NCBI GenBank assembly: GCA_030704615.1
Contig: CM060734.1
Location: 39,742,001-39,806,000 of the forward strand
Length of the DNA: 64,000 nucleotides
Direction: 5' to 3'
DNA from: Takakia lepidozioides
Taxonomy: Eukaryota > Plantae > Bryophyta
Positions 9,907 through 43,291 of the stretch are shown in pieces (within the stretch, counting starts at the first letter, position 1; each line of letters begins with the position of its first letter). The notes under the pieces are model-generated. The model made no database searches, was not told the origin of the DNA, and worked only from the letters and a program-made list of their open reading frames with translations. Both the position numbers and the translations under genes were made by a program.

Positions 9907-9943
9907 GTCCCTCAGGGTACCCCTGGGTGCCCAGGGGTACCAC

Positions 9944-10937: not shown

Positions 10938-11076
10938 ACCACAAACTACATTCTACGGTCACCTAGTATCCCACAAGACACCTTTCTTTTATAGGGCCCA
11001 CCCTCGAAAGGGGGCAGTAGCCGCAAGGCGAAGTGGCTCTTAGTTACGCCGGCTTCAGCCGGAGTCTTCTCTCTCT

Positions 11077-11785: not shown

Positions 11786-12134
11786 CAAAGCCGCATCACA
11801 AGAAACAAACAAACATGTCCAAATTTAAGATGCTAAACAAACTTGTGCACAGGGCTGCCCCTCTCATCAAGCTCATTAAAATTCGTATTCACTTCCATCT
11901 TCAAGCCTTGGAGAAGCTCCACCACCCAAACCCAGAATTAGGACAGCACTCTGAGTTCCATCCACTGCCACCAGAATGAGTCAAAAAATGCCCTTTCAGT
12001 CAAGCTGACTTCCCACCTATGCCGGGTAGACCCCATGATGGTCAATACTCCTAGGAAATGGTGGATGGTCTGAGTAGCTACACAGATCAATGAATGAAGC
12101 AAGACACTCGCATCTTTCCAAGAAAGCATCCTTT

Positions 12135-12810: not shown

Positions 12811-13137
12811 TGTCAAGTTATTTTACCACTAGTGTGAAACTAGCTAGGAAATAGCTAGCTTTTACATATTGACATTTGGGATTGGCCCAAGTGTCAATCC
12901 AGGGGTCAAGGCAGATTTAGGCCCTGGAGTGGTTATCTTCACGGCAAGCGCGGGAGGCTCATCTTTCTCGAGTTGAGCCTCACCGCGCCTAGCTATGGCG
13001 CCGTAGTATGATTTCCCCATGGCGTGGGGTGCACTTGGCTTGACTTGTATTTGAGTGATGAGGTTATATATGCATGAGTTTATGCTTCAGCTTTGTGAGC
13101 TCGCATGAGCTTGTGCTTGTATTCTTCCTCTTTATCA
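12811..13137 (+). repeat. Family A LTR segment B (5' terminus)
   Basis: 327 bp, TGTCAAG...TTTATCA; repeated at 23357-23482 (partial), 27164-27489 and, inverted, 52064-52390. Confidence 0.95.
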
Positions 13138-13153: not shown

Positions 13154-14514
13154 TCGTATCTGTGAGTGCCAGATACGAGTTAGTTGTAGCACTTGTGATT
13201 TTTGCTTGAGAATGAGAGAAACCAGGTTGTTATGCAAGGAGCACCGTGGAGCTCTTGGTTGTTAGAAGCGGAGGCGATGTGGGTTACGAGGTGGTAGACC
13301 TTGGCATTCGATCTTCAGTTTCAGAGATGAAAGCATCATGCTGCAGGTAATTCCAGAGCACCTTGATGGTTTCAGATTGTGTACATGCATGAGCAAGCAC
13401 GATTGGAAGAGGACCAGTCAAGAGCAGGTTATAGTGGCTTTGGTGGCAAATCTGAGAACTAGCCTTGGGAATGCGAGCTTTCATTGTGTGAAGGATTGCA
13501 GACCAAGCGAAAGGGCTGATTTGGCTTGGGGCAAATCAGTGCACTTTGTGGAGTATGTTGAGATTGGGTTTCAATCTCGAGCTTTAGCATTGAGAGGGCT
13601 CTTGTCATGGCAAGAGTAGGGCTGGAACAGGAGCTAAGAGATGCGGCAAGACAATGGAATGTGCACCTAGGGTTTCAGAGCTTGGAAGAAGAGCTCTTGC
13701 ACCACAAGAGGAGTGTCTTGTGGCTGGAAATGTAAGCCTTAGGGTTTCAGGAGCTTGGCAAAGGCTGTGGAGTGCTTAGTCTTGTCTTAGAGAGCATCAA
13801 TGAGCCAAGGAGCCAAGATAGGGGGCTGATACTCTTGTGTGAAGAGGTTGTGTGTGGAGCATGTATTCAGCTCATTGAAGCTTCCATCTTCAAGCTTGGA
13901 GGGCAAGCAAGGAAGAGGGAAGGGCTGACTTCCTTTATGTGAGGGCAATGCATGTGTGGAGCATGTTTTCAGCCTATTGAAGGCTTGTATTTTCAGGTTG
14001 GTGGGTGCAAGAAAGGAAGCAAAGGGACTGATTCTCTTGTGGTGAGAGTGGGGCATGTGTGGAGCATGCCTTCAGTCCATTGGGCTTTTGTTTTCAAGCT
14101 TTAGAGAACTAGAAGAGAAGGTAAGGGGCTGATCTGCTCTTATGTGACAGTCCGACACTTGTAGAGCGTGTTCTTAGTTGTTGGGTTTCAACCTCAAGCC
14201 TAGATAGAGCATGGCTCTTGAAGTGGCAGATGTAGGGGGCTGGAATAGGCTCTAAAACAGATGCTATGACCAAGGAAAACGCTTGAATGAGTGCTCACAA
14301 GGGCTGGAAACCAGCAAGGCTTGGTTGTTTGCCATTGAGTTTAGTGGCGTGTTTGGGGAGTCTAAGTGAGAAAGAAGGCTTGGTTTGTGGCAACCATCTT
14401 CCTCATGGCTTAGGGCTACTATTGGTGGGGTGTGGGAGCCGAAAGAGCAAGAATGGCTTGGCGTGGCTAAACCCCTTGGAGAAATGGCTAAACTGCCATG
14501 AGTGGCCATGGATG

Positions 14515-15010
14515 GGGCCTATGGCCTGTGGGGTTGTGACCTGTGAGGGGTTGTGACAGGCTGTGCCTGTGGCCTGTGGGGCTGTGACAGGCTGTTCCCT
14601 GTGGCCTGTGGGCCTGGCCCGGCTGTGCCCTGTGCCCTGACCCCTGTGACCTGTGTAGGGCTATGACAGGCTGTGATGGGCTGTGAGGGGCTATGCCCTG
14701 TGGCCTGTGGGGCTGTGACGGGCTGTGACAGGCTGTGGCCTTTGGGGCTGTGACCCCTCTGACCTGTGTAGGGATGTGACGGGATGTGACAGGCTGTGGC
14801 CTTTGGGGCTGTGACCCCTGTGACCTGTGTAGGGCTGTGACAGGTTGTGGCCTTTTGGGGCTGTGCTGTGTGCCTGTGACAGGCTGTGACCCCTGTGACC
14901 TGTGTGGGGCTGTGACAGGCTTTGACCTGTGGCTTTGGGGGTGTGATGGCTGTGGTGTGGGGCTGTGACGGCTGTGACCAGTGATGTGTGTGGGCCTGTG
15001 CTGGTCTATG
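14515..15010 (+). repeat. Degenerate GGCTGTGAC/GCCTGTG tandem array in the family A 5' UTR
   Basis: Visible short-period repeats; longer inverted counterpart at about 35160-36109. Confidence 0.9.
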
Positions 15011-15889
15011 GTGGCCCGTGTTGATTTGTGGACAGCTTGTACTGACTCGTGGAGGCACTGGTGGACTGCCTAAGGACTGGCATGTCTTGAAGGCCGAATT
15101 TTGAAGCTCGTGGAGGACGGTTTGAGGAGTATCTTCATGATATTTCCATGGTCATGCAAGCGAGGGAAGAGAGGAGAGAAGAGTGTTGGGATGAGGGCAT
15201 GCTGGGGTAGGCATTGCTTTAGCTTCTCTTCCTCGTAGTTTTCCACCCTCTCATTAGGCCAAGACCTTTCCGTAGGTGGAGGCAAAAATCAGTCCGGGTT
15301 TGGGCTGGGGTATCCTTGCAGAGCAACACCGTGGAGTTGTTTTGGTGGGAATTGTCTGATTTCTGTTTGGATCCCCTCCATACCTGCATGCTTGACTGTG
15401 CGCCATGTTAGTTTTGTGTGGGCGCTTGTTTTTATAGGTGATTCGTCCGGATTTGATTCACCGGCCAGTCCTAGAGCATGCTGTCGATTGTGAGGCTGGG
15501 GTGATGACCAGTCAGACCATCATTGTTTCTCCTGTGGTGAGGTTGGAGGTGATGACCAGCCAACCATAGGAGTGCTTGCGGTGGATGTAGGTGCAGGTGT
15601 AGGCTATGTTAGGAACCTTAGTATTCCAAACCATAAGCCGCAACAGGTTCTCTACCCCGGTTACCTTGTGGAGAGGGGGGTTAGGGACCCCGGTTGAGTG
15701 ACAGTTTGTCAACACGGAGGTGCCACTAGTTGCTGGGGACAGTGTCGGTTCGAGCACTAGCGATACTAGTGGGTACACGAGACGAGGTGTGCGGTTTAGG
15801 CCACCTTCACCTCCTGTGTCTTCTACGGAAGGTTCTGATTCAGATTGTGAATCAGGAGGACTCACACCGGCGGTGCAAGTTGTTTCCTT

Positions 15890-17100
15890 GCCATTGTTGT
15901 GGGACGCGATGGAGGAGATCTATGGAGCTACCAAGGGGCCACGAAGGTACTCTGGGGCAATAGGCACCATCGAGTTGGATGATTTTATCCAAGAGTTTGA
16001 TAGTTGGTCTATTTGCAGCAAATGCGCAATCCACAACTATTTACGTCTTTCATGGCATGGAAGGGGCTGTTTCAGCACCTTGAGGGGCCGCCTATGGATG
16101 ATACCATGAGTTCAGGGGGGGCATGAGGTTGAGATCGAGGAGTGGAGGATGTACTGGTCACCCGACTATGTCTCCATCATTAGGGGCACTAGAGCCACGA
16201 GGGCAGTGGCTACACCTGCCGCTGCATCGGCAGCTTCAGCAAGCAGCAATGGGACTAGTGGGACTGGTGGTACAGTAGCTACGACGTCCACCCAAGCCAC
16301 TACCGCACCAGCACTAGCACCCGTGCCTGCCTTCAACCCTGTTGTGGAGTTCTTCGAAGAGTTGAGAGGGAACTACCAAGGGGTGAGGACAGAGAAGTTG
16401 CGGAGCTTGCAAGAGTTCCAACGGAAGCCGACCGAGAGCTTGAGGGAGGCTTTCACTCGCATGAGGCGCTTGATAAATGTAACCCAAGGGGTTACGGAAG
16501 CTCAGGCAGTCCAATTCTGGTATGGGATATTGGACAAGGAGCTGAGGAGAAGGGTGCGGGATGCAACTCTCCTACAAGCGGCCCAACCCACCTTAGCAAA
16601 TGTGTTTTTGCTGGCAGAGCGGATAGAGCTCAACATGGTGGAGGAACGAGTGGTCATGGTGGGATTTGCTAAGGAGACACCACGGGGTAGTGGTGCTCCT
16701 AGCCAACCACTACCTCAACGTGCTCAAGGCAACAAGGGGCTCAGGTGAAGCTCAGGGAAGGGCAGAGAGGACCTCAGATGCAGGGGTCTCTCCCTTCATT
16801 TGCTGGCCAACAACGGGCGGATGTGGTGTGTTGGACATGTGGAGGACCCCATGTCAAGAAGGATTGTCCAGAGGGAGGCAAAGGGCCGGCACATGCACAG
16901 CCTGCACAGTTGCAGTGTGGGCATTGTGGCAAGCACGGGCATGGAGAGGCCCAGTGTTATGGTTTGCATCCTGAGTTGCGCCCAGGCCAGTTCCAAGGGA
17001 ACAATGGTGGCCGGGGCGAGGTGGAGCAGCCCAGAGAGGACGAGGTGGCCAGCCACGGGTGAGGCCAAGGGCAAGCTCAACATGGCCAAGGACGCGGAGG
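15890..17100 (+). pseudogene. Family A gag with two zinc knuckles
   Basis: FQRKPTESLREAFTRMRRL; CWTCGGPHVKKDC; CGHCGKHGHGEAQC; frameshifts. Confidence 0.9.
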
Positions 17101-17849: not shown

Positions 17850-18260
17850 CAGGATGGCATTTTCTGTTTGAGTGGACCGGCAGGCAAGAGGTACCGGCCA
17901 CTGCGGGTCTTGTTGGACTCGGGAGCTCAGCCATTGATGCTGGGGGAGCTGCTATTGCAGGCTTGGGCCTCACGGAGGCGGATATAGAGCCTTGTCCTTT
18001 CAGATACAGACGTCTCTGGGAGGATCGGAGCAAGCTCGGGGCATGACACGGCGTGAGTTGGCTATCAGACTACGGCCGGATCACCCTACAGATGGCTCAG
18101 TGATGCGAGCCAAGGCCATTGTGACAGACGCAGTCTCGTACGATGTCCTGGTTGGTGGGGCAGTGTTGTACCCCATGGGCTTCACCCTGGATTTTTGGGA
18201 AGAGTCAGCTTCCTATAGGCCTGGATGGCAGTCAGGGGAGGGCCGGCGTGTGCAGCTCCC
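17850..18260 (+). pseudogene. Family A aspartic protease
   Basis: RVLLDSGAQPLM and YDVLVGGAVL motifs. Confidence 0.88.
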
Positions 18261-18609: not shown

Positions 18610-19545
18610 ATGAAGGCATTTGTCTTCTGGACTTGTTTGGCGGGATCAGCACCAAATTGGCTGCTGTGTTACAGGCAGGTTTACGAGTTCGGCGTTACCT
18701 ATATGTGGAGAGGGATGAGACTGCACGACGCGTTTCACTTCGCCATGTTGCTCAGTTGGGCAGCGGTACCCTGAGTTGTTGTCGATGTCAATTCGTGGAT
18801 ATCAGCAGGCCTTGCCAACAGACATTTCGTTGCTGGGGGCGCAGGATTTGGAGCGGGTTGGCTCCATTGATCTGGTAGTGGCAGGTTGGCCTGCCAAGGG
18901 CATTCATCAGCCGGGCATGGCAATGGATTGCGAGACTCAAGGTCGGGTCTGTTTTGGGAGATGGTGCGGGTTTTGCGCCACTTGCAGCTTCATCAAGCTG
19001 TATCTCCAGCATACATCTTGGAGAATGTGCCACTGATGGCGATTCTCGGGCCAGGGTGATGGCCAGTGTGCATCAAGTCCGGTCATGGCTTGGGTCAGCA
19101 GTGTTGCTAGATGCAGCTACAGTGGGGTCACGGGCTCATCGTCCACGGCTATGGTGGACTAACTTGATGCCACCCGCACTGCTCAAGCGTGCATTTGATG
19201 GGGTGCAGCGGCCAGCACATCTCACAGTGGATACATTTTGGACACAGGGAGGCAGTCTCAGCGTGTGAGACACGATGACCGTTCGCCTTTGGCAGTGTCA
19301 ACAAGGTGGGTCAACCACGAGCACATTACCTACACTGCTCAGCTTCCCAGGATCGCATGCTTTCCGGGATAGTGGACCTGGCCTCCTGTGGGATGCTCAG
19401 TTGCAGCAGTTAGTGGAGCCTAATGCTGACGAGCGTGAGCGGGCAATGGGTTTTACCACTGGTACCACGGCGGTGCCGTCTCTTTCTGAGGCATCACGTC
19501 GTCAGTGTTGGGGCAAGCATGGATCTCAATTGCTTGACCTGGATT
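18610..19545 (+). pseudogene. C5 cytosine DNA methyltransferase domain (DNMT3-like) within the gypsy polyprotein
   Basis: Motif I LLDLFGGIS, II YVERD, III ADI/TDI, IV DLVVAGWP(C)QG, VI YILENV, VIII HRPRLWWTNL, IX ERERAMGF, X RRQ..G..MD. Confidence 0.92.
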
Positions 19546-19899
19546 ATCAGCTTGGCTCTGGCTGAGCAACGCAGAGTGCGGAGTACACTTCCCTCAATGG
19601 TCTCTCTGCCTACCGAGACGGTACAGGCAGTGAGTGGGGGCGAGCATGAGAGGACCACGGGGTGCAGGCATGCATCCATGGCACACATGGGAGGTGCTCG
19701 AGGTTCAGAGGGAGTTGGCAGCCAGGCGGCTGTGATGGATGAGGTTGGGGATTTTTCTCGGTTGAGGAGGTCCTCAAGGATGAGATGATGGGCAGGATGA
19801 GGCCTTGTCATTGACTGAGCAGGCAGGGAGTAATGCTCAAGAGGTTGCAACATAGCAACCACTGGAGCGTCCTCTACCTCTAAGCCCACTGGACTTAAG

Positions 19900-21285
19900 G
19901 TTGCAGTTACGGAGGACAATTGGGAGCCTGACATTGGACCCATTGTCACCGGAGGAGAGAGACGACGTATACGGCGGTTCCTGAGGGCTTACAGGAATTG
20001 CTTTGCCTTCAGTTTGAAGGACTTGGGAGCACTGAAGGGTCAAGAGATCCGTATTGAGTTGGCCACTGACACGCCAATCTTTCGGAGACCATAGATACAG
20101 TGACATGGAGAGGTCTTTGATTCAGATGAGGACTCAAGATCTCTGGGAGGCAGGTTTGGTGGAGCTCTCTGGTGGAGAGTATGCTTCAGCACAGTGATGC
20201 CAGCCAAGAAGGATGTCTATGGCAATTGGACGGAGAGACGTATGTGCGGTGATTACCGGCCTGTAAATCGTCAGACCAAGTCCGATAAGTATGCCATGCC
20301 AACACCAGAGGAGATCTTTGATGCCATAGGGCATGCTAAGGCCTTTAGCACTTTGGATTTACGATCCGGATATCACCAGTTGCCAATCAAGGAGGCGGAC
20401 AAGCAGAAGACGGCATTCTGGGGGATCAATGAGCACGGCATGCAAGTTTTCAGAGAGTCATAGATAGGATTCTAGCAGGGGTGGACTTTGCTCGGTGCTA
20501 CATAGATGATATCATCATCTTTAGTGTTACGATGGAGGAGCATGAGAGACACCTTCAGGTGGTATTGGAGCGCTTGAGAGCGCACGGATTGAAGTTGCAT
20601 CCGGGGAAGTGCAAATTTTTCCACAACCAGATTGAGTATCTGGGTCACATGATATATCCTGGAGGATTGGGGGTACAGCAGACTAAGGTAGAGGCCATTG
20701 CACAAATTCCACCCCACGGATGTGAGCCGAGTTGAGCTTTCATGGGTTGGCAAACTATTATAGACGGTTTGTCAAGGGATTAGTACCATTGCAAAGGCTC
20801 TAACCAAGCTGACCAAGGTGGACCAGGAGTGGCAGTGGGAAGATGAGCAGGAACGAGCTTTTCAAGAGCTCAAGGCGAGGTTGACCTCGGCGCCTATCCT
20901 GAGACGACCTATCAGGGGGCGTCCCTTTCAGCTGCATACGGATTGGAGCATGCTGGGGCTTGGAGCGGTGCTCACACAGGTGGATGATGAGGGAAGAGAG
21001 TTCGTAGTGGCTTACGCTAGCCGCTCGAACAACGCTGCAGAGGCTAAGTACAGCTCATATGAGGGAGAGTGCTTAGCTGCAGTGTGGGCCGTGGCACACT
21101 TCAGGTGCTATCTATACGGCAATCTTTTCACCCTTGTCACGGATCACCAGCCACTCAAGTGGTTGATGGAGTCAGACAAGCTTACGGGGAAGCTTGCACG
21201 GTGGGCACTCATACTCCAGGAGTATGACTTTCAGGTTGTGCATCGACCGGTTTGGTCAATCGGGATGCGGATGGATTGAGTCGCA
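19900..21285 (+). pseudogene. Family A RT and RNase H
   Basis: [55 protein letters not shown]. The FGLKNAP region seen in copy 2 is deleted here near 20440. Confidence 0.95.
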
Positions 21286-21639: not shown

Positions 21640-22740
21640 GGATTGTGCCTCACCCCACACAGCGTGCACGGTTAGTGCGGCATGCCCATGAGGAGTTGGG
21701 GCATTTTGGAGTGCGACGCACTCACAGTTTACTGGCAGTATTGGTGCGTGGTATGCATACAGAGGTGCAACAGTTTGTGGCTAGGTGCATGGTGTGTGAC
21801 AGGGTGCGTGCTTCGTTTAACGCCCCTACACCACAGTTGCATCCTTTACCTATCATGGGATTGGGGCTACAGTGGAGTCTTGACTTCGCAGGACCGTTGC
21901 CACTGACTATGCGCCACCACAGATATGTGTTGGTGATGGTGGAGCACTTCTCCAAGTGGATTGAGTTGGTTCCATTGCCTGACAAGGCTAGTGAGGGGGC
22001 TGCGTATGCATTCTTGGATCGTGTGCTTAGCCGATTTGGTGCTCCAGCTGAGGTACTCACGGACCAAGGGAGAGAGTTCTTGGGGGAGTTTCAGGCTTTG
22101 TGTGATAAAGCCTTGATAGACCACCGCACCACTTCTCGGGATCATCCTGAGGCCGATGGCTTAGCAGAGAGAGTTTGTTCAGACGGTGAAGAGGGGTTTG
22201 CGCAAGTATGGCTTGCAGAAGGGACACCTAGGAGATTGGGATCTTCAGGTTCCTTGGTTAGCCATGGGCTACAGGTTCAGCAAACAAGCATCACTTGCCT
22301 CCTTCTCACCATATTTCCTTCTCTTTGGCCGAGAGCCGGATTTGCCTGCAGCCATTCGTAGGGACACTGCTCAAGTCCTTAACCTTGACGATCCGGACGT
22401 GTGGGTACGTGCATGTGATCAGCGTGCAGAGTTGTTCAAGAAAGTCATGCCCATGGCTTTTGAGAACCTTGCCATTGCACAGCACCGTGATACGTTGAGG
22501 TATGCCACTATACGTGGTGGAGGATATCGTCCTGGGGTTCAGAGGTTTAGCCCTGGTGACTATGTTTATTTGCAGCAGACTGCTCCTACGACTCTGGATG
22601 TTACTCAGGCGTGTTATTTTGAGGGTTCGAGAGGTGTTGCCCTCAGGGTCCTGATCTTGGAGGGTCGGGATGGCATGACTTGGAAAGACCATGTGCGTAA
22701 TTGTGCGCCATGTCACCTTCCCAATGTCGATGGCAGAGTT
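21640..22740 (+). pseudogene. Family A DDE integrase
   Basis: HEELGHFG..CMVC zinc finger, SLDFAGP, LTDQGREF, ADGLAER. Confidence 0.93.
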
Positions 22741-22774: not shown

Positions 22775-22912
22775 GTGCATGCTCTGTGGGTCTGCCAAAG
22801 GGGCAGCCACCATGCTGGTGTGTGATCGATGCTCAAGAGTTGGCATATGGGATGCTTGACACCACCTCTTGAGAGGTCTGACGGAGATTGGTTATGTCCA
22901 CACTGCTTGGGA
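22775..22912 (+). other. PHD finger at the integrase C-terminus (copy 1, frameshifted)
   Basis: Same sequence as the in-frame copy at 26569-26710. Confidence 0.85.
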
Positions 22913-23175
22913 TAGTGGCAGTGGACATGACTAGAGGCAGCTAACAAGACATGGGAGGCCAAGCTCATAGGAGTCAATACACGAGATCCCAGGCTCAAGT
23001 TCACAGGTTGCAAGACGGCGACTAACGATGGGGCAACTCTTGCACCCGGCCTCTTGATCTATCGAGTTTGAGTGTAGTAGGGACAGTGGTGGAGGACTTA
23101 GTGAGGCTATGGTAACTATCACATCTTGTGGCTACCTGAACTTAGAGGGACCTAAGCACCAGCTAGGGGGGCGAT

Positions 23176-23354
23176 TGTGTGGACTAGTGACTGCCATAGT
23201 GGGCAGCATAGTAGCAGCCTAGTGACTGACTAGTTGTAGCCTAGTGGTTGGACTAGTGGGCTGGGACTAGTGGTATACTAGTGTGTGGTGTGCATATGTG
23301 TTGTGTGGTTTTGGACAACGATGTAGTTGTGTAGCGATATGTATGCGCACGACA
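23176..23354 (+). repeat. Family A LTR segment A
   Basis: TGTGTGG...GCACGACA, rich in ACTAGT; follows the PPT; repeated at 26974-27161 and 27491-27678. Confidence 0.93.
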
Positions 23355-23482
23355 GCTGTCAAGTTATTTCACCACTAGTGTGAAACTAGGTAGGAAATAG
23401 CTAGCTTTTACATATTGACATTTGGGATTGGCCCAAGTGTCAATCCAGGGGTCAAGGCAGATTTAGGCCCTGGAGTGGTTAT

Positions 23483-23680
23483 TGTTAGAGGGTTTCTTGG
23501 GACTTGGATGCTTTTACGGGATCTGGGGGGGTACCCTTAATTTTTACACAGACTGAGACCAACAGGAGCCTTAGGGGTGACACAGCAACAGGCTTTAGGG
23601 GAGGAGATACACAGCCCAACACAGTCCATCACAGCCCGACACAGCCGTCACAGCCAACACAGCCGACACAGTCAGACATA
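23483..23680 (+). mobile_element. Truncated family C LTR (5' end) inserted into the family A 3' LTR
   Basis: Begins TGTTAGAGG, the reverse complement of the LTR end at 50464/10937; breaks off in the CACAGCC repeats and joins family A RT. Confidence 0.85.
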
Positions 23681-26600
23681 GCCTTCAGTTTGAAGGACTT
23701 GGGAGCACTGAAGGGTCAAGAGATCCGTATGGAGTTGGCCACTGACATGCCAATCTTTCGGAGACCCTATAGATACAGTGACATGGAGAGGTCTTTGATT
23801 CAGATGAGGACTCAAGATCTCTGGGAGGCAGGTTTGGTGGAGCTCTCTGGTGGAGAGAGAGTATGCTTCAGCCACAGTGATGCCAGCCAAGAAGGATGTC
23901 TATGGCAATTGGACGGAGAGACGTATGTGCGGGTGATTACCGGCCTGTAAAATCGTCAGACCCAAGTCCGATAAGTATGCCATGCCAACACCAGAGGAGA
24001 TCTTTGATGCCATCGGGCATGCTAAGGCCTTTAGCACTTTGGATTTACGATCCGGATATCACCAGTTGCCAATCAAGGAGGCGGAACAAGCAGAAGACGG
24101 CATTCTGGGGGATCAATGAGCACGGCAAGGATTGCCTATATCAGTGGCAGTTCTTACCATTTGGGCTTAAGAATGCTCCTGCAGAGTTTCAGAGAGTCAT
24201 GGATAGGATTCTAGCAGGGGGTGGACTTTGCTCGGTGCTACATAGATGACATCATCATCTTTAGTGTTACGATGGAGGAGCATGAGAGACACCTTCAGGT
24301 GGTATTGGAGCGCTTGAGAGCGCACGGATTGAAGTTGCATCCGGGGAAGTGCAAGTTTTTCCACAACCAGATTGAGTATCTGGGTCACATGATATATCCT
24401 GGAGGATTGGGGGTACAGCAGACTAAGGTAGAGGCCATTGCACAAATTCCACGCCCCACGGATGTGAGCCGAGTTCGAGCTTTCATGGGTTGGAAAACTA
24501 TTATAGACGGTTTGTCAAGGGGGATTTAGTACCATTGCAAAGGCTCTAACCAAGCTGACCAAGGTGGACCAGGAGTGGCAGTGGGAAGATGAGCAGGAAC
24601 GAGCTTTTCAAGAGCTCAAGCGAGGTGGTTGACCTCGGCGCCTATCTTGAGACGACCTATCAGGGGGCGTCCCTTTCAGCTGCATACGGATTGGAGCATG
24701 CTGGGGCTTGGAGCGGTGCTCACACAGGTGGATGATGAGGGAAGAGAGTTCGTAGTGGCTTTACGCTTACGCTAGCCGCTTCGAACAACGCTGCAGAGGC
24801 TAAGTACAGCTCATATGAGGGAGAGTGCTTAGCTGCAGTGTGGGCCGTGTGGCACACTTCAGGTGCTATCTATACGGCAATCTTTTCACCCTTGTCACGG
24901 ATCACCCAGCCACTCAAGTGGTTGATGGAGTCAGACAAGCTTACGGGAAGCTTGCATGGTGGGCACTTATACTCCAGGAGTATGACTTTCAGGTTGTGCA
25001 TCGACCGGGTTTGGTCAATCGGGATGCGGGATGGATTGAGTCGCAATCCATGCATGAGCCAGCAGGATGACACTGGAGCTCGGTGGGCATGGTGAGACGG
25101 ACGAGGAGATGGTGCCGGGATGGCACGCATCTGCATTTTTGTGTATCTTGGCATCGGGAGGTCAGATTGGACCTACAACAGGGATGACTGGTAGACGGAG
25201 GAGTGTCTGAGGACCCTGAGGCTAGTGATGAGCTAGGTGGTGCCATAGATATACATGAGGATTCGGCTGTGTTGGACTACCTTCCGCACGGGAGACACGG
25301 CAGCCATTGTGACTGCCAGGAGAGAGGGGATCGGATCCTGCAACGAGCCAAGAGGTTCAAGTGGGAGGGGATACACCTACTTCGAGTGTGGGAGGGTGGT
25401 GGGTGAGGATTGTGCCTCACCCCACACAGCGTGCACGGTTAGTGCGGCATGCCCATGAGGAGTTGGGGCATTTTGGAGTGCGACGCACTCACAGTTTACT
25501 GCAGGGGCAGTAGTATTGGTGGCGTGGTATGCATACAGAGGTGCAACAGTTTGTGGCTAGGTGCATGGTGTGTGACAGGGTGCGTGCTTCGTTTAAGCCC
25601 CCTACACCACAGTTGCATCCTTTACCTATCATGGGATTGGCTACAGATGGAGTCTTGACTTCGCAGGACCGTTGCACTGACTATGCGCCACCACAGATAT
25701 GTGTTGGTGATGGTGGAGCACTTCTCCAAGTGGATTGGTTGAGTTGGTTCCATTGCCTGACAAGGCTAGTGAGGGGGCTGCGTATGCATTCTTGGATCGT
25801 GTGCTTAGCCGATTTGGTGCTCCAGCTGAGGTACTCACGGACCAAGGGAGAGAGTTCTTGGGGGAGTTTCAGGCTTTGTGAGTGAAAGCCTTGATAGACC
25901 ACCGCACCACTTCTCGGGATCATCCTGAGGCCGATGCTTAGCAGAGAGAGTTGTTCAGACGGTTGTGAAGAGGGGTTTGCGCAAGTATGGCTTGCAGAAG
26001 GGACACCTAGGAGATTGGGATCTTCAGGTTCCTTGGTTAGCCATGGGCTACAAGTTCAGCAAACAAGCATCACTTGCCTCCTTCTCACCATATTTCCTTC
26101 TCTTTGGCCGAGAGCCGGATTTGCCTGAGCCATTCGTAGGGGACACTGCTCAAGTCCTTAACCTTGACGATCCGGACGTGTGGGTACGTGCATGTGATCA
26201 GCATGCAGAGTTGTTCAAAGAAGAGAAAGTCATGCCCATGGCTTTTGAGAACCTTGCCATTGCACAGGCACCGTGATATGTTGAGGTATGTCACTATACG
26301 TGGTGGAGGATATTGTCTTGGGGGTTCGGAGGTTTAGCCCTGGTGACTTATGTTTATTTGCAGCAGACCGCTCCTACGACTCTGGATGTTATCTGCAGGG
26401 GCGTGTTATTCTGAGGGTTCGAGAGGTGTTGCCCTCAGGGGTCCTGATCTTAGAGGGTCGGGATGGCATGACTTGGAAAGACCATGTGCGTAATTGTGCG
26501 CCATGTCACCTTCCCAATGTCGATGGCAGAGTTGACCCAAACTTGGCAGTGGTACCTGCAGGTTTGAGGTGCATGCTCTGTGGGTCTGCCAAAGGGGCAG

Positions 26601-27678
26601 CCACCATGCTGGTGTGTGATCGATGCTCAAGGGGTTGGCATATGGGATGCTTGACACCACCTCTTGAGAAGGTTCCTGACGGAGATTGGTTGTGTCCACA
26701 CTGCTTGGGATAGTGGCAGTGGACATGACTGGAGGCAGCTAACAAGACATGGGAGGCCAAGCTCATAGGAGTCAATACATGAGATCCCAAGCTCAAGTTC
26801 ACAGGTTGCAAGACGGCGACTAACGATGGGGCAACTCTTGCACCCGGCCTCTTGATCTATCGAGTTTGAGTGTAGTAGAGATAGTGGTGGAGGACTTAGT
26901 GAGGCTATGGTCACTATCACATCTTGTGGCTACCTGGACTTAGAGGGACCTAAGCACCAGCTAGGGGGGCGATTGTGTGGACTAGTGACTGCCATAGTGG
27001 GCAGCGTAGTGGCAGCCTAGTGACTGACTAGTTGTAGCCTAGTGGTTGGACTAGTGGCTGGACTAGTGGTGGACTAGTGGTATACTAGTGTGTGGTGTGC
27101 ACATGTGTTGTGTGGTTTTGGACAGCGATGTAGTTGTGTAGCGATATGTATGCGCACGACAGCTGTCAAGTTATTTTACCACTAGTGTGAAACTAGTAGG
27201 AAATAGCTAGCTTTTACATATTGACATTTGGGATTGGCCCAAGTGTCAATCCAGGGGTCAAGGCAGATTTAGGCCCTGGAGTGGTTATCTTCACGGCAAG
27301 CCCGGGAGGCTCATCTTTCTCGAGTTGAGCCTCACCGCGCCTAGCTATGGCGCCGTAGTGTGGATTCCCCATGGCGTGGGGTGCACTTGGCTTGACTTGT
27401 ATTTGAGTGATGAGGTTATATATGCATGAGTTTATGCTTCAGCTTTGTGAGCTCGCATGAGCTTGTGCTTGTATTCTTCCTCTTTATCATTGTGTGGACT
27501 AGTGACTGCCATAGTGGGCAGCGTAGTGGCAGCCTAGTGACTGACTAGTTGTAGCCTAGTGGTTGGACTAGTGACTGGACTAGTGGTAGACTAGTGGTAT
27601 ACTAGTGTGTGGTGTGCACATGTATTGTGTGGTTTTGGACAGCGATGTAGTTGTGTAGCGATATGTATGCGCACGACA
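23681..27678 (+). mobile_element. Family A copy 2, 3' half (RT-RH-IN-PHD, then LTR segments A-B-A)
   Basis: Near-identical to about 20005-23482; ends ...GCACGACA at 27678. Confidence 0.95.
26569..26710 (+). other. PHD finger (C4HC3) fused to integrase
   Basis: CMLCGSAKGAATMLVCDRCSRGWHMGCLTPPLEKVPDGDWLCPHC. Confidence 0.95.
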
Positions 27679-30600
27679 TCCCTTCCCGCAATTTCTGGAA
27701 CACCCTTTTGAGATGCTCCAGGTGCTCCTCCTTTGTTTTCGAATACACCAAGATGTCGTCGATGTACACGATCACAAAGTCATCCAACCACTCCTGGAAA
27801 AGGCTGTTCATCAGCGTGCTAAATGTCGCTGGTGCATTGGTGAGCCCAAAAGGCATCACCAAGAACTCATATGAACCATACCTTGTCCTGCACGTGGTCT
27901 TCTCCTCATCTCCTTCCGCCACCCGAATTTGATGATAGCCGGAGCGCAAGTCGATCCGGCTGAAATACTTCGCTCCTACCAACCGATCGAAGAGGTCGTC
28001 AATCCTTGGCAAAGGGTACCGGTTTTTGATAGTCACCTTATTCAGAGCCCTGTAATCGACACACATCCGCAGCGTCCCATCCTTTTTATCTGCAAATAGC
28101 ACCGGGGCTCCGTAAGGTGACTTACTTGGTCGGATGTACCCCTTTGACATTAGATCTTTGAGCTGAGTCTTCAGCTCGACCAACTCTCTGTGGCTCAACC
28201 GGTAGGGCGCCTTGGCAGGCGGTTCCGATCCCGGTATCACCTCAATCTTGTGGTCAACTCCTCTTCGCGGTGGCAAGTCGCTTGGCAAATCCTCCGGCAT
28301 CACATCATGGTATTTCTCCAAAATCCCCTTGATCCAATCTGGCTCGGCTCTCCATCGCCTTCTCCCTTCACTTCTCTAATGTAGAGCAAAAACTGGGGCT
28401 CGTGTGCCTCCTCCACGGCCCACTCCCTTGCTGACAGAAGGTTTATTCACCCTCCCACGGGTTTGGGCGTTTCCGAAACTCGTAAGACCTTGCCACCATT
28501 CCAACATGGCAGCGTGACTACCCTCTTGCGGCCATCTATGACCGCTCCGGATTTGCTCAAAAAGGTCATCCCCAAAATGAGATCCACTCCATCGATCTCG
28601 CAGACGGTGAAGTTCTCACGTCCCTCCCAACTCCCCAGTTGAAGAGGAACATCGAACGCCAACCTCGTCGCCAATTGCGGTTCTCCTTTGGCAGAACGCA
28701 CCTCAATAGAGGCCCCTACGTCAGTTGTCGGGAGTCCCAGCTTTTGTGCCGTTGTCGGTGTCATGAAGGAGTGCGACGCTCCTGTGTCCACCAACAATGA
28801 CACGTTAGTTCCTGATATTATCCCATCCACGAACAATAAGTGACTCCCTTTACGCAATGCGCCAGTTTCCTGATACAACTCACAAGAATATTTGCCTACC
28901 TTGCAAGTCCTGGCGACCACCGCTTCCACCAAGCGACTGATGGTATCTTCGACAGCTCCGTGGTTGCCCGAGTCATGTTCAATTGTCGGGGTTTCGTGCA
29001 CTTCTTGGCCATGTGCCCGGGCTCTCCGCAATTGAAACACACTCCATCAAAGGTCGCCTTCTGTCTGCCATAAGCCGCTCCACCCGCTTTTCCTTTCGAA
29101 GCACCGGTGCCGCCTTAACGTGTGAAGGCCCTCCCTACGATTTCCACGTGCCATTGTCGCCGCGTGGCCTATCCCACTTCTTTTCCGGTCGGAAGGAGTC
29201 ACCTTCCCGCTGGGTCTTCTTGTGGTTCAGCTCCGTACGGCCTTGTCTTTCACCCCTAGGGACATCTAAGAAACATTCAGCCCTCTCAATTGCCTCGTTC
29301 AAAGTCTTAGGTGGCTTCTCCTCCAACTTCCGCCTGGCCCATGGGGCCAGTCCCGCCACAAAGTTGAAGACCATTTCCGGTTCTGCCATGTCCGCGACTT
29401 TGAGCAAAAGCACATTGAAAGCCTGGACATATCCCCGAATGTCGTCTGTTTGCTTCAAATTCCTCATCTTGTCCCGGGCAAGCCAGGACGCGTTGAGGGG
29501 CACAAACTGTCGCTTCATCAATTCCTTGAACCCACTAGTTCAAGGTTTCCGGACTTGGACCTCGGTCGTGAAGGTGTTTCTGCCACCATTGTTGAGCATA
29601 GCCCCTCAAATAGGTGGGAGCCACTTCCACCCGATCCTCGTCACTCAACTTGGCCGCCCGGAAGTACTGCTCTAGCTCCAAGAGCCAGGTGTTGAGTGCC
29701 TTCCGATTTCAGACGCCCTCGAAGGTGCCGGGTTCCTTAGGCTTCACCTTAAACTTTGCCTTAGTGGTGGCATTAGCCGCCTTCAACACGTCTTTCAACG
29801 TCCCGCCAAACTGCGCCAACAACCCTTCCCAAAAAGCTGCTGGCATGGGAGGCATCTGTTGGTCTGTCGGAGCTCTCAGGGATTCCTCGGGCTCCGACTC
29901 CTCGGATTCCTCCCGCTCTTGAGCGGCCTCGTTTTCAGAAACCTGCGTCGCTTCCTCAAACGGCCGCTTCGGTGACACGTCGCCCCCATCGGGCTCACCA
30001 GGATCAACATCTTTTGGGCCGTTCCGCTTTCGCTTTGGCTTGCCCGACCCCATGATGAGGCCAATCCCAAGGACGATCGCGTACTGAACTCTAAGCTTTG
30101 ATACCAAGTGTCGCGCACCTCACTTCGGTAAGCTCCCCTTCAAATCATAGTTACTCGCTTTGATGCGCGCGCCTGACTCCCAACCTGGCCGCCGGGCCAA
30201 CTTGGAGCTTCGGCTGCTCACCGGGACATAACGGTCCCCCTTCGCTCTCCCACTAAACCCTCCACCTATTTGGGCCTAGTGGAATTCCCTTTGGTAGATG
30301 GCAGTCCGGAACAGCTCCCCACTCTTTGGTCGCTTTCCAGCTCGCTCGCTTACTCACTAGTTTTTGGTCACCAACGGGCTTGCACCGTTCTCGGGTCACT
30401 ACTCCCCTATATATACTTCTGTAGCTATCCGCGGGGGTTTCACAACCAGCCATGCCATTTTATGGCGAACCACCACGAAAACCCTCGACTCCCGGTGATG
30501 AGTCGCAGTGAGTCTTGGCCCACTCACCACGGCCCCTATGGACCGTGATGAGTCCCAAGACTCCCCACGACTCCCACCACGAGGTCTCCGTCCCCATGGT

Positions 30601-30834
30601 GAGTCCTTTGCCACCCCCACTAAGTCCCACTAAGCTACCACCACCCCTTGTGGAGCCACCCCCACCGCAACCCGGTGTGCGGGGCTCCACCTAGTGAGCG
30701 CCTCCGCCTCCTTGAGTGCCATGGGCACTCAAGGGTGCTTCAGCCCCCCATACCTATCGCTGCCGCTGCCCCCACCACAAGGGCAGCCTCTCATGTGTCC
30801 CGACCCCCTGTCCACAAGGCAAAGGACTGCGACA
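27679..30834 (-). mobile_element. Ty3/gypsy family B (chromovirus-like), 5' LTR + gag + PR + partial RT
   Basis: LTR 30109-30834 with TGTCGC...GCGACA ends; PBS TGGTATCAAAGC (30095-30106); gag knuckle; LLVDTGASHSF; [27 protein letters not shown]. Confidence 0.93.
30095..30106 (-). promoter_or_regulatory. tRNA-iMet primer-binding site (family B)
   Basis: TGGTATCAAAGC two nt after the LTR CA; one mismatch to the canonical TGGTATCAGAGC. Confidence 0.88.
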
Positions 30835-31530
30835 CCTTGTTGACCACCAAAGGCGAACGGTCATCGTGTCTCACACGCTGAGACTGCCTCCCTGTGTCCA
30901 AAATGCTATCCACTGTGAGGTGTGCTGGCCGCTGCACCCCATCAAATGCATGCTTAAGCAGTGCGGGTGGCATCAAGTTAGTCCACCATAATCGTGGACG
31001 ATGAGCCCGTGACCCCACTGTAGCTGCATCCAGCAACACTGCTGACCGAAGCCACGACCGGACTTGATGCACACTGGCCATCACCTTGGCCCGAGAATTG
31101 CCCATCAGTGGCACATTCTCCAAGATGTATGCTGGAGATACAACTTGATGAAGCTGCAAGTGGAAACCCGCACCATCTCCCAAAACAGACCCGACCTCGA
31201 GTCTCGCAATCCATTGCCATGCCCGGTTGATGAATGCCCTTGGCAGGGCCAACCTGCCACTACTAGATCAATAGAGCCAACCCGCTCCAAATCCTGCGCC
31301 CCCAGCAACGAAATGTCTGCTGGCAAGGCCTGCTGATATCCACGAATTGCAGACACCGACAATAACTCAGGGTACCGCTGCACCAACTGAGCAACATGGC
31401 GAAGTGAAACGCGTCGTGCAGTCTCATCCCTCTCCACATACAGGTAACGCCGAACTCGTACACCTACCTGTAACACAGCAGCCAATCCGGTGCTGATCCC
31501 GCCTAACAAGTCCAGAAGACAAATGCCTTC
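30835..31530 (-). pseudogene. DNMT3-like cytosine methyltransferase domain, copy 3
   Basis: LLDLLGGISTG, YVERD, DLVVAGWPCQG (catalytic PC intact), YILENVP, HRPRLWWTNL. Confidence 0.92.
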
Positions 31531-34500
31531 ATCCGGATACTGCCACACAATAGCTGTGGTGTCCAATGTAGACAACTGAGGTGGTCCTGGTGCAATCCCC
31601 GCACTCTCCTCCTCTCCTGACGGTACAAAAGCCTCCACCCAGGCTTGTTGCACCCGTCTATCAGCATCCCGCTGCAAATCCTTGCTCGTGCCCCACAATG
31701 GAGACTGAGCAACCATGACAGGCAACTCCGCCATACCATATATGTCATCCTGTTTTCCCGGAGGTGGCACATCCTCTGAATGAGCGTTGCCCTCAAGCAA
31801 CTCTATAGGCCAACTCACTGCCGCTGTGAATGCTGCTAGTGTCGGCATCTTGCCTCGCTAGGCAACCGCAAATCCTCCTATGAACGTCACAGGGAGCTGC
31901 ACACGCCGACCCTCCCTTGATTGCCATGCAGGCCTATAGGAAGCTGACTCCTCCCAAAAATCCAGGGTGAAGCCCATGGGGTACAACGCTGCCCCACCAA
32001 CCAGGACATCGTATGAGACCGCGTCTGTCACAATGGCCTTGGCTCGCATCACTGAGCCATCTGTAGGATGATCCGGCCGTAGTCTGACAGTCAACTCACG
32101 CCGTGTCATGCCCCGAGCCTGCTCCGATCCTCCCAGAGACGTCTGTATCTGGAAATGACAAGGCTCTATATCCGCCTCCGTGAGGCCGAAGCCTGCAATA
32201 GCAGCTCTGTCCAGCATCAATGGCTGAGCTCCCGAGTCCAACAAGACCCGCAGTGGCCGGTACCTCTTGCCTGCCGGTCCACTCAAATAGAAAATGTCAT
32301 CCCGGTTGTCTAACATGACAACTCCAGGTGTCACCATGGCGCGCTCAATGGCTGGCCTAGCTGGCAGCTCCATCAACCTGGCAGCTGCAGCTTGCCACGG
32401 CACCGCCGTGGCAGTCTTGACCCTCAAATCCAAGGATCCCTCCGGCACTACACCTCCCACTATCTCCGCAGAAGATGAAGTAACCTCCCCACTCTCAAAG
32501 AGTGTAGCTGCCAGCCTGAACACCTCAGCTGATTTTACCCCCGGCGTCGCAATCATGGTAGCCGAGAACAATGGAGCCTGGCACACAGATGTGGCCGCTC
32601 CTAGCAGCACACTAGCTGCCGTAGCCTTGGCAACACTGGGTAGTGGTGCTACCCGTGTAGCTCTCCCTAATGGCATAGTAACCTCTGCCTCGGCAACAGT
32701 CGGGCGAGAACTAGGTGCCATGGATGGCGTCGACACTGTCTCCGCCAATGTGAATGACTGAGGAAGCCTAGCCTGACGGCTTGCCTCCCCACGCCGTGGA
32801 TCCAACTCCACCTCTGCACCTCGTGGCTCAGGAACTCGTGCTGCTCCTTGAGTCACGGCTGCAGCAGACTCCACCTGCACTAGTAGTAGTGTTGTTCCAC
32901 ACATGAATCCCATGCCTCCCATATCTCCTCCCTCAGGAGCATGAGGTGGACCATCCGGCCTTAGAGCCGGTACCACCTGAGCTGTAGCCATGGCAGCGAG
33001 CCTCTGCTCTAGCTGCTGAAGCCGGTTGGCCATGCCTTGGTCAACACCCTGACCTCCGCGTCCTTGGCCATGTTGAGCTTGCCCTTGGCTTGCACCTCGT
33101 GGCTGGCCACCTCGTCCTCTCTGGGCTGCTCCACCTCGCCCCCGGCCACCATTGTTCCCTTGGAACTGGCCTGGGCGCAACTCAGGATGCAAACCATAAC
33201 ACTGGGCGTCTCCATGCCCGTGCTTGCCACAATGCCTACACTGCAACTGTGCAGGCTGTGCATGTGCCGGCCCTTTGCCTCCCTCTGGGCAATCCTTCTT
33301 GACATGGGGTCCTCCACATGTCTAGCACACCACATCCGCCCGTTGTTGGCCAGCAAATGAAGGGAGAGACCCCTGCATCTGAGTCCTCTCTGCCCTTCCC
33401 TAAGCTTCACCTGAGCCCCCTTGTTGCCTTGAGCACGTTGAGGTAGTGGTTGGCTAGGAGCACCACTACCCCGTGGTGTCTCCTTAGCAAATCCCACCAT
33501 GACCACTCGTTCCTCCACCATGTTGAGCTCTATCCGCTCTGCCAGCAAAAACACATTTGCTAAGGTGGGTTGGGCCGCTTGTAGGAGAGTTGCATCCCGC
33601 ACCCTTCTCCTCAGCTCCTTGTCCAATATCCCATACAGAATTGGACTGCCTGAGCTTCCGTAACCCCTTGGGTTACATTTATCAAGCGCCTCATGCGAGT
33701 GAAAGCCTCCCTCAAGCTCTCGGTCGGCTTCCGTTGGAACTCTTGCAAGCTCCGCAACTTCTCTGTCCTCACCCCTTGGTAGTTCCCTCTCAACTCTTCG
33801 AAGAACTCCACAACAAGGTTGAAGGCAGGCACGGGTACTAGTGCTGGTGCGGTAGTGGCTTGGGTGGACGTCGTAGCTACTGTGCCACAAGTCCCACTAG
33901 TCCACTGCTACTTGCTGAAGCTGCCGGTGCAGCGGCAGGTGTAGCCACTGCCCTCGTGGCTCTAGTGCCCTAGTGATGGAGACATAGTCGGGTGACCAAT
34001 ACATCCTCCACTCCTCGATCTCAACCTCATGCCCCTGCCTAAACTCATGGTAATCATCCATAGGCGGCCCCTCAAGGTGCTGAAACAGCCCTTCCATGCC
34101 ATGAAAGGCGTAAATAGTTGTGGATTGCGCATTTGCTGCAAATCACACCAACTATCAAACTCTTGGATAAAATCATCCAACTCGATGGTGCCCACCGCCC
34201 CAGAGTACCTTCGTGGCCCCTTGGTAGCTCCATACATCTCTCCTCCATTGTGTCCCACAACAATGGCAAGAAATAACTTGCACCGCCGGTATGAGTCCTC
34301 CTGATTCACAATCCGAATCAGAACCTTCCGTAGAAGACACAGGAGGTGAAGGTGGCCTAAACCGCACACCTCGTCTCGTGTACCCATTAGTATCGCTAGT
34401 GCTCGAACCGGCACTGTCCCCAGCAACTAGTGGCACCTCGTGTTGACACTCAACCGGTCATGAACATGTCCCTAACCCCCTCTCCACAAGGTAACCGGGT

Positions 34501-37118
34501 AGAGAACCTGTTGCGGCTTAGGGTTTGGAATACTAAGTTCCTAACATAGCCTACACATGTACCTGCATCCACCGCAAGCACTCCTATGGTTGGCTGGTTA
34601 TCACCTCCAACCTCACCATAGGAGAAACAATGATGGTCTGGCTGGTCATCACCCCAGCCTCACCATCGACAACATGCTCTAGGACTGGCCGGTGATCAAA
34701 TCCGGACCAATCACCTATAAAAACAAGCGCCCACACAAAACTAGCATGGCGCACAGTCAAGCATGCAGGTATGGAGGGGATCCAAACACAAGAAATCAGA
34801 ACGACAACTCCCCCACACCAAAAACAACTCCACGGTGTTGCTCCTGCAAGGACACCCCAGCCCAAACCCGGACTGACTCTTGCCTCCACCTATGGAAAGG
34901 TCTTGGCCTAATGAGAGGGTGGAAACTACGAGAAAGAGAAGCTAAAGCAATGCCTAACCCCAGCATGCCCTCATCCCAACACTCCCTCTCCTCTCTTCCC
35001 TCACTTGCATGACCATGGGAATATCATGAAGATACTTCTCAAACCGCCCTCCACAAGCTTCAAAATTCGGCCTTCAAGACCACATACCAGTCCTTAGGCA
35101 GTCCACCAGTGCCTCCACGAGTCAGCACAGGCCGTCCACAGGTCAACACGGGCCACCACAGACCAGCACAAGCCCACACAGCTCACAGGCCACAGCCTGT
35201 CACAGCCCTACACAGGTCACAGGTCACAGCCCCAAAGGCCACAGGCATAGCCTGTCACAGCCCTACAAAGGTCACAGGGTCACAACCGCAAAGGCCACAG
35301 CCTATCACAGCCCCTCACAGCCCCATAGGCCACAGGGCACAGCCTGTCACAGCCCGACCACAGGTCACAGGGGTCACAGCCCAAAGGCCACAGCCCCACA
35401 ACCCGTCACAGCCCCACAGGCCACTGGCACCCGTCACAGCCCGTCACAGCCCCACAGCCCACAGGCACAGCCACAGCCTGTCACAGCTCGCCGCCTGTCA
35501 CATCCCGTCACAGCCCTACAGGCCATAGGGCACAGCCTGTCACAGCCCCTCATAGCCCGTCACAGCCCCACAGGCCACAGGCCACAGCCTGTCAAGCCCC
35601 TCACAGTCCGTCACGGCCCCACAGGCCACTGGGCATAGCCTGTCACAGCTCGCCACAACCTGTCACAGCCCCTCATAGCCCGTCACAGCTTGCCACAGCC
35701 TGTCACACAGCTCGTCAAGCCCCACAGGCCACAGGGCACAGCCTGTCACAGCCCGCCACAGTCCATCACAACCCATCACAGCCTATCACAGCTCGCCACA
35801 GCCTGTCACAGCCCGTCACAGCCCCACAGGCCACAGGGCACAGCCTGTCACAGCCCCACACAGCCCGTCATAGCCCCACAGGCCACTGGGCACAGCCTGT
35901 CACACAGCCCCTCACAGCCCCACAGGGCACAGGGCACAGACTGTCACAGCCCCTCACAGCCCGTCACAGCTCCAAAAGGCCACCGGCACAGCCCCCTCAC
36001 AACCCACCACAGACCCCAAGGCCACCGGCACAGCCCGTCACAGGCCCTCACAGCCCGTCACAACCCCGAAGGCCACCGGCACAGCCCGACGCAGCCCGTC
36101 ACAGCCCCAAAGGCTGTCGCGCGGCGTTTACTCACCCATCCCTTTGTTATCCGAGGCGGAAACTCCAAGATAGAAGAGTTGGAAATCTCTAAGTACTCAG
36201 CCCGCTCAGAACAATCAGTCATGACCTACAGCTAGTGTATCATGGGGGTGTTTCCTATTTGTTTTCTTTTCCGCATTCATGTTAGCTAGCTACCTTACTA
36301 TTGATAATTAAGTATCAGTTTGCTTCATCAATCTATCGGATTCCATCAACTCATCCATTCATTCCACAGCTTCACTCAGATCTCTCTACACAGTATGAGT
36401 ATGAAGTATGTATCAGATTAATATCTATCAAGTATCAGGCTGAAGCCATGGTGACTCTAATCTACTCTACATTACAATTCTATAGCTTGCAATCATCAAG
36501 TAACAACAGATCATCATTTCTCCTACTCCGTACTCTTCATCTTTCTGCTCAGAGATCCCTCTCTGTCTCATTTCCCTTCCTCATGTCCGAAGACCCCTCC
36601 CGAAGTCATGTCCAGAAGTGATCTCCACAATCGATGTCAAGAACTGATTGCAAGCCGTAATCTCAAGAAGTGATCCTCCTCCCGTCCTCGCTCCTCGCTT
36701 TATTTTCCTACCCGTTGTTCTAACCATTTTCCTCACTAACCGTCATCTGTGAACTAATCATGTTCCATTCGCAGATGTTGTTCCCCATAGTCGTTCCCTG
36801 TCCTGCTATCCGTTCCCTACGGTCGTGACAGCTGTTTCAAGCTGTGACTGGCTGTGTGGCTGTGACGGGCTGTGACTGGCTGTGCGACGTGTTGCTGTGA
36901 CTGGCTGTGTGGCTGTGTCGGCGTGTCGGCTGGCTGTGTGCGGTTGTGTTGGCTGTGGCTGTGATGGGCTGTGTCGGCTGTGTGACTGTGACGGGCTGTG
37001 TTGGCTGTGACGGGCTGTGTCGGACTGTGACGGACTGTGTAACCCCCCTCTACAGTGCGCTGCTGTCACCCCTAAGGCTCCTGTTGGTCTCAGTCTGTGC
37101 AAAAATTAAGGGTACTCC

Positions 37119-43290: not shown

Positions 43291-43291
43291 A

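Follow-up and report, generated by a model that had tools for sequence, protein, structure and literature searches.

We describe a broken land-plant Ty3/Gypsy retrotransposon, family A, three copies of which lie in a 64-kb stretch of Takakia lepidozioides DNA (contig CM060734.1, positions 39,742,001 to 39,806,000; "the window" below means this whole stretch). Its integrase (IN) ends in a PHD finger, and a DNMT3-like cytosine methyltransferase (DNMT) is encoded ahead of its reverse transcriptase (RT). Our preferred reading, to which we give a probability of about 0.55, is that the integrase is anchored to chromatin through its PHD, which would bind histone H3 tails that lack lysine-4 (K4) methylation, and that the DNMT is made separately, with Gag, and methylates the element's own new cDNA. 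A leaky stop codon would keep Gag-protease (PR)-DNMT abundant and RT-RNase H (RH)-IN-PHD scarce, and the protease would separate DNMT from IN-PHD. These would be two modules of one life cycle, landing in silent chromatin and arriving methylated, and would not be coupled in the manner of ADD and DNMT3.

The PHD finger at the end of the integrase

The PHD in copy 2 is a genuine PHD finger. It reads C-x2-C-x11-C-x2-C-x4-H-x2-C-x14-W-x-C-x2-C at 26570-26704, is followed by a stop at 26711-26713, and matches PF00628 over the whole profile (1-47 of 47; 43.9 bits against a cut-off of 24, E 2.4e-11), a check that the preliminary description of this DNA had proposed. That description placed a canonical C4HC3 finger at the end of pol in copies 1 and 2; this holds as it stands for copy 2, which is in frame, whereas the finger of copy 1 (22776-22906, stop 22913-22915) is divided between two frames in the assembly, through single-base losses. 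The finger directly follows the SH3-like C-terminal part of the integrase, and in the intact relatives P0041, P0073 and P0075 integrase and PHD form one open reading frame (ORF), ending just past the finger. Across 58 loci its pN is 0.225 against a pS of 0.631 (uncorrected), which indicates purifying selection, and all eight zinc ligands are intact in 53 of 59 loci. The PHD is a real feature of a broken copy, and a variant of a kind already known.

Which histone tail the finger would read

Compared by sequence and by the fold of a structure model of moderate quality (mean predicted local distance difference test score 67.8), the closest solved fingers are those of CHD4, KDM5A/B PHD1, ATXR5, DPF2/3, PHF21A, BAZ2A/B, UHRF1 and AIRE. 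Several of the nearest are titled as complexes with unmodified H3, and no ING, BPTF or TAF3 chain is found among the best 60 of 81 solved-structure matches. PHD fingers that read K4me3 carry an aromatic-cage Trp two residues before the His. The window finger has Gly here, as do 30 of the 31 fingers of land-plant type and 93 of the 105 of algal type that could be parsed (from 43 and 107), so that the hallmark of a K4me3 reader is missing and the earlier statement that no aromatic cage is evident was correct. In the ATXR5 numbering of H3 contacts given in the available text of PMC7718874 (Pro60 and Gly62 for H3A1, Asp44 for H3R2), the window finger retains Pro60 and Gly62, that is, the H3A1 pocket; Leu39 and Leu37 are replaced by Val and Met. 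These likenesses suggest that the finger belongs to the unmodified-H3 class, with no methyl cage, and from them we infer that it may bind H3.

Three features of the land-plant finger weigh against this. The residue equivalent to ATXR5 Asp44 is Ser (an Asp three residues earlier is retained); an N-terminal acid is found in 2 of 31 land-plant-type against 78 of 105 algal-type fingers (Fisher p=6e-12); and the mean net charge is +3.1 in the land-plant type against -4.9 in the algal type, so that the acidic surface is lost. In PAIPP2, mutation of the Asp44 equivalent to Lys abolished H3 binding, according to the available text of PMC7718874. Since acidic residues that algal relatives keep have gone, H3 binding is unsure for the land-plant finger and the case for a preference for unmethylated H3K4 is weakened; the class assignment appears better founded for the algal-type fingers than for that of the window. 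The land-plant finger might then no longer be an H3 reader at all, having kept its fold and turned basic, with loss of the acidic loop as well as of the Asp44 equivalent, to bind DNA or protein or to play a structural role within the integrase. We consider this unlikely, though it is the alternative to be taken most seriously: the H3A1 pocket is retained in the land-plant type (Pro in 30/31, Gly in 28/31, Trp in 31/31), an Asp follows the third Cys in 29/31, the ATXR5-type contacts described in PMC7718874 are mostly main-chain, and the algal-type fingers too mostly do without the Asp44 equivalent (Asp in 13/105).

A conserved stop between DNMT and RT

The DNMT domain is DNMT3-like and intronless, its motifs are unpermuted, and the motif IV Cys is present in 137 of 142 DNMT domains; the best solved matches of the relative P0004 are DNMT3A/B/C (E 1.7e-8 against DNMT3A). 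In eight of the nine full loci first examined, DNMT and RT share a frame with a stop between them. This stop stands at one column in all 24 loci with a recognisable linker (19 TAG, 5 TAA) and is followed by CAA-CC in 22 of them, although the 24 loci are near-copies and not independent cases. The TAG-CAA-CCA of the window, at 19853-19861, shows no variant at a level of at least 3% in the contigs of three runs (two samples), and is an exact match to CAR-YYA, the plant-virus stop-readthrough consensus (PMC2194720), giving a predicted readthrough context of the tobacco mosaic virus type. Several whole Gag-PR-DNMT proteins end 84-138 residues past the DNMT, and those of Marchantia and Calypogeia end 88-90 residues past it, at about the same place as the stop. 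Downstream of the stop no clear RNA structure stands out: z is 0.0 for the window and ranges from 0.0 to -2.6 over six loci. We found no report of a stop between DNMT and RT in Gypsy-DNMT3 elements in the literature searched (figures, theses, Repbase, preprint supplements and most subscription papers lay outside this search and the others reported below).

The conserved stop suggests that two products are made and may work separately, and its readthrough would give much Gag-PR-DNMT and little RT-RH-IN-PHD. Such an imbalance would argue against an ADD-like unit, and for a DNMT acting in the particle on cDNA; methylation of the element's cDNA, a role already proposed in PMC5890265 (as far as its available parts go), is what we suppose the DNMT to carry out. 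The ratio of observed to expected CpG is 0.51-0.53 in family A, 0.85 in the neighbouring Gypsy and 0.34-0.71 elsewhere, and gives no specific sign of self-methylation.

Besides the near-identity of the 24 loci, further observations count against this half of the reading. The window stop is off frame with the RT as assembled, and the metagenome loci, which are in frame, continue past the stop with CAA-CCC, which departs from CAR-YYA by one base, and then ATG, so that re-initiation or splicing could replace readthrough. The KnitGypsy DNMT of Klebsormidium, tested alone, did not methylate yeast DNA, a result that its authors deemed inconclusive (PMC5890265, available parts), and no Klebsormidium sequence appears by name among the matches listed for the DNMT and integrase-PHD protein searches. 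Finally, the algal-type DNMT lies directly before the integrase in one ORF, so that a fused DNMT-IN-PHD unit is possible there.

A near-constant PHD and a movable DNMT

Relatives were gathered in several ways. The DNMT ORF retrieved 35 longer proteins, with Marchantia, Calypogeia and Sphagnum as named hosts, and the integrase end with the PHD retrieved 54 proteins at 48-90% identity. The DNMT region of P0033 retrieved 151 long proteins, with Haematococcus (e.g. P0154), Monoraphidium (P0156) and Chromochloris (P0202) among those named, of which the best 120 were classified. A wider integrase survey took the best 150 of 461 relatives at E 1e-30, with a small bias because its query included the first half of the PHD; for metagenome loci the best 80 of 390 stretches were used, several of them one copy from different samples. 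A pattern scan of viral contigs gave 12 matches and no relative.

The PHD proved near-constant within these samples: it follows the SH3-like part in 130 of the 131 integrase relatives whose sequence leaves room for one, and among DNMT-bearing polyproteins of algal type it occurs in 106 of the 107 with room. The DNMT varies. Among the 120 classified proteins the layout is RT-RH-DNMT-IN-SH3-PHD in 82 and gag-PR-DNMT in 3, the remainder being partial. Of 53 integrase relatives that hold both RNase H and integrase, 38 have the DNMT between them, 4 have it before the RT in the same ORF, 2 are long and run from a protease-like stretch to the PHD without any DNMT, and 9 start at the RT or later and are uninformative. 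No DNMT lies anywhere along P0300 and P0336, which extend from the protease to the PHD; unbroken DNMT-RT ORFs are seen in P0035, P0246, P0292, P0325 and P0340. Half of the 80 metagenome loci are too short upstream to tell; in the 40 informative ones the DNMT is upstream in 30 (29 at no less than 45% identity, one at 44%), while of the other 10, 9 also lack gag and protease and 1 has a gag-to-integrase deletion. A near-constant PHD beside a DNMT that varies in slot and presence argues that the PHD is a feature of the clade, and the DNMT a movable and sometimes absent addition.

The DNMT and RT trees alike split the land-plant from the algal types, and DNMT layouts are scattered over the wider integrase tree. 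These are quick trees (with Shimodaira-Hasegawa-like approximate likelihood ratio support) of subsampled rows with an outgroup of one or two sequences, one of which is long, the outgroups of the RT tree being two window sequences; they leave the root unfixed and do not tell one gain of the DNMT from two. A large chlorophyte group encodes the DNMT between RNase H and integrase, in an ORF that also includes the PHD, and some proteins of this group add G-patch or Tudor-like matches. The DNMT-RT-RH-IN-PHD polyprotein P0246 is 2710 residues long and has CCCH zinc fingers close to its N-terminus.

The PHD-DNMT pairing is thus common to green algae, liverworts and Sphagnum, in a widespread and partly described family. 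The survey of co-occurrence that the preliminary description called for bears out the pairing itself, in full-length relatives, and does not support the idea that family A combined reader and writer independently. That description also had the PHD replacing a chromodomain. As a statement of position, after the integrase, this stands; as history it is not supported, since no chromodomain was seen in the window C-terminal ORFs, in the relatives' precomputed Pfam lists or in 29 scanned proteins.

More tentatively, the whole clade could be viewed as a green-lineage-old group of split-repeat Gypsy elements in which the PHD steers insertion to H3K4-unmethylated chromatin, and in which a leaky UAG gave the land-plant members a capsid-level DNMT3 that premethylates cDNA and perhaps the insertion site. 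If true, this would be a self-silencing, heterochromatin-seeking retrotransposon with many methyltransferases per particle, which may add to bryophyte methylomes.

The preliminary description favoured a coupled system, in which the PHD reads unmethylated H3K4 and brings the DNMT to the insertion site, or activates it there, in the way that ADD acts on DNMT3 in animals. The very high co-occurrence of PHD and DNMT is in keeping with this, both proteins would be in one particle, and in algae the 82 of 120 proteins with both domains in one ORF could yield a DNMT-IN-PHD product. We nonetheless think a coupled system improbable: the PHD occurs without DNMT in P0300 and P0336 and in Gypsy-7a_cRei, whose figure legend in PMC9940879 lists no DNMT; the DNMT occupies two slots, scattered on the integrase tree; and in land-plant copies the stop and ~1000 residues lie between DNMT and PHD. 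We therefore do not retain the ADD-DNMT3 parallel, and keep to the reading in which tethering and methylation are separate tasks.

Copies, repeats and ends in the window

The window holds several retrotransposons, all frameshifted. Family A is represented as follows:

12811-13137, plus strand: 5' terminal repeat A, starting TG; interrupts a decayed minus-strand PPR gene
15921-16960, plus strand: gag with zinc knuckles, copy 1, frameshifted (tblastn with P0004, ORF translations; PF03732 weak, E 0.0012)
17904-18228, plus strand: aspartic protease (LLDSG), copy 1, frameshifted (ORF translations, tblastn)
18615-19544, plus strand: DNMT3-like C5 cytosine methyltransferase, copy 1, non-permuted motif order, frameshifted (by the relative P0004 against DNMT3A, E 1.7e-8)
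19853-19861, plus strand: stop TAG-CAA-CCA ending Gag-PR-DNMT, predicted readthrough context
19987-21279, plus strand: RT and RNase H, copy 1, frameshifted
21687-22719, plus strand: integrase, copy 1, with H2C2, DDE core and SH3-like C-terminal part (PF17921, PF00665)
22776-22915, plus strand: PHD finger of copy 1, disrupted in the assembly by single-base losses, and its stop
23174-23482, plus strand: repeat B (23174-23354), GC and cut repeat A (23357-23482), copy 1
23482-23680: ~200-bp piece of a repeat from another family, where copies 1 and 2 meet, matching 10737-10938 inverted
23681-26512, plus strand: copy 2, 5'-truncated, with RT, RNase H, integrase and SH3-like part, frameshifted
26570-26713, plus strand: complete in-frame C4HC3 PHD finger, copy 2, then stop (PF00628 E 2.4e-11)
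26972-27678, plus strand: split direct repeats B (26972-27161), GC, A (27164-27489) and B (27489-27678, ending CA)
30827-35628, minus strand: gag-PR-DNMT part of copy 3, cut inside the DNMT (PF00145 E 2.5e-8)
52064-52390: 5' repeat A of copy 3

By tblastn and ORF translations, copy 1 has the order gag, protease, DNMT, RT, RNase H, integrase, PHD; copy 2 starts at the RT (23681), without gag, PR or DNMT; and copy 3, on the minus strand, is gag-PR-DNMT only. DNMT and PHD thus occur jointly in copy 1 alone within the window.

From repeat A (12811-13137) through the coding region to B, GC, A and the B ending at 27678, the window shows an A-coding-B-A-B layout, as a composite: the 5' end (12811) and 3' end (27678) are flanked by different 4-bp sequences, so the stretch joins two insertions. 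The full layout is present in 3 of the 80 metagenome loci (L007, L026 and L042), and all three have 4-bp target duplications and TG...CA ends (the 5' end decayed in one). Identity with Phygy was set aside, as the NCGN target motif is absent from these three duplications. A purine run lies immediately 5' of repeat B. At the inner B-A junction lies a short palindrome, ACA-GC-TGT, made of the right end (CA), two bases and the left end (TG); it occurs at 27155-27170 and 23348-23363 of the window and in L007, L017, L019, L022 and L054. It resembles a circle junction, which a DDE integrase could cut open directly. A tRNA primer site is not evident after the 5' repeat.

Copies 1 and 2 differ by 39 substitutions, of which 32 are transitions, and by 63 indel events. 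Eighteen of the 32 transitions fall at CG/CHG sites (p=0.002), so that these look like two real methylated copies; the 63 indel events may largely be read errors, as 40 single-base indels suggest, although the repeat ends show 1 indel, fewer than the 9 expected were this so. Short-read contigs span the whole element, at a depth that is roughly even along it (this is no measure of copy number). It is very improbable that the finger is a passenger, or that copies 1 and 2 are an assembly artefact without meaning: every copy is frameshifted, indels exceed substitutions (63 against 39) and the two outer ends share no target duplication, but purifying selection on the finger and a clade-wide PHD already largely refute such a reading, and the methylation-type substitutions that separate the copies and the short-read coverage of the whole element tell against it too.

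Neighbouring elements

At 11900-12810 on the minus strand is the decayed PPR gene, with a DYW-like end, that the 5' end of the element cuts; such a gene points to a land plant as host. A second Gypsy family occupies 27680-30770 on the minus strand, between the 3' end of copy 2 and the cut DNMT of copy 3, and is a case of nested insertions with later rearrangement. A ~1-kb repeat of a third family is present in three copies (9943-10938, 36114-37136 and 49419-50465); between the latter two, in the leader of copy 3, a long RT-RH-IN element (41985-43975) has inserted, and a fragment of the repeat sits at the copy 1/copy 2 join. Degenerate GCTGTG-rich tandem repeats lie at 14495-15070 and 35100-36110, in the element's 5' leader and neighbouring repeats. 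At 53800-59090 there is a likely hAT-type DNA transposon, with a DUF659 match (57109-57756) between inverted arrays of ~52-bp repeats. Positions 1-9900 are strongly C-rich, with frameshifted plus-strand ORFs and an RNase H match at 8299-9348, and are probably a long interspersed nuclear element-like element.

Comparison with known systems

The discussion in PMC5890265 raises the question why a retrotransposon should retain a DNA methyltransferase. Within this clade nature has set up several contrasts: the PHD stands with a DNMT or without one, the DNMT takes either of two slots, the fingers are acidic or basic, and a stop sets the dose of DNMT. Its presence in Marchantia and green algae opens targeting and self-methylation to study with chromatin maps and genetics.

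That PHD fingers are widespread in retrotransposons is stated in the available parts of PMC6673714, PMC8557442 and 10.1101/2021.11.30.470311; those of PMC12344493 and PMC9033089 add nothing on the PHD. In the literature searched we found no naming of a PHD in Gypsy-DNMT3 elements or of its presence in bryophytes or chlorophytes, and the only DNMT3 retrotransposons described there are from streptophytes and dinoflagellates. A reader and a writer in one element is not new as an idea, given the EpiLTRs and PHD-bearing algal Gypsy elements. REM1 is reportedly one such PHD-bearing green-algal Gypsy element.

The nearest known system is KnitGypsy-Dnmt3 of Klebsormidium, one of the streptophyte Gypsy-DNMT3 elements of de Mendoza et al. 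2018 (PMC5890265), also named in 10.64898/2026.05.21.726589. Family A shares with it the Gypsy domain set (PR-RT-RH-IN, with a DDE integrase), an intronless, non-permuted DNMT3-like domain and split repeats in the A-coding-B-A-B order of DIRS elements, and these likenesses suggest kinship. It differs in its host, here a land plant; in the PHD, which is not named in the text or three supplementary files of PMC5890265 (Fig. 4c aside); and in that the KnitGypsy DNMT is in the Pol ORF, whereas in land-plant copies it is in the RT frame but behind a stop.

Like chromoviruses, as far as they are set out in the available part of REXdb (PMC6317226, where PHD and methyltransferase go unmentioned), family A has a chromatin-reader domain after the SH3-like integrase end. 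It differs from them in that this is a PHD and not a chromodomain, with no sign of a former one, and in having split repeats instead of two equal long terminal repeats (LTRs). The green-algal Gypsy-7a_cRei likewise carries a PHD in its Gag-Pol, and inserts in intergenic DNA 2.6 times more often than chance would give; no DNMT is listed for it in PMC9940879. EpiLTRs also join a chromatin reader and a cytosine methyltransferase in one LTR element; in the available part of 10.64898/2026.05.21.726589 they have a chromodomain, a DNMT4-sister enzyme and DAM, come from Cymbomonas and Euglena, and are considered by their authors a separate acquisition.

In animal DNMT3A/B the ADD domain adjoins the catalytic domain and controls it. 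Family A resembles these enzymes in holding a DNMT3-type catalytic domain and a finger of the class that would read unmethylated H3K4 in one genetic unit; unlike them, it has the finger on its integrase, set apart from the DNMT by a stop codon and likely protease sites.

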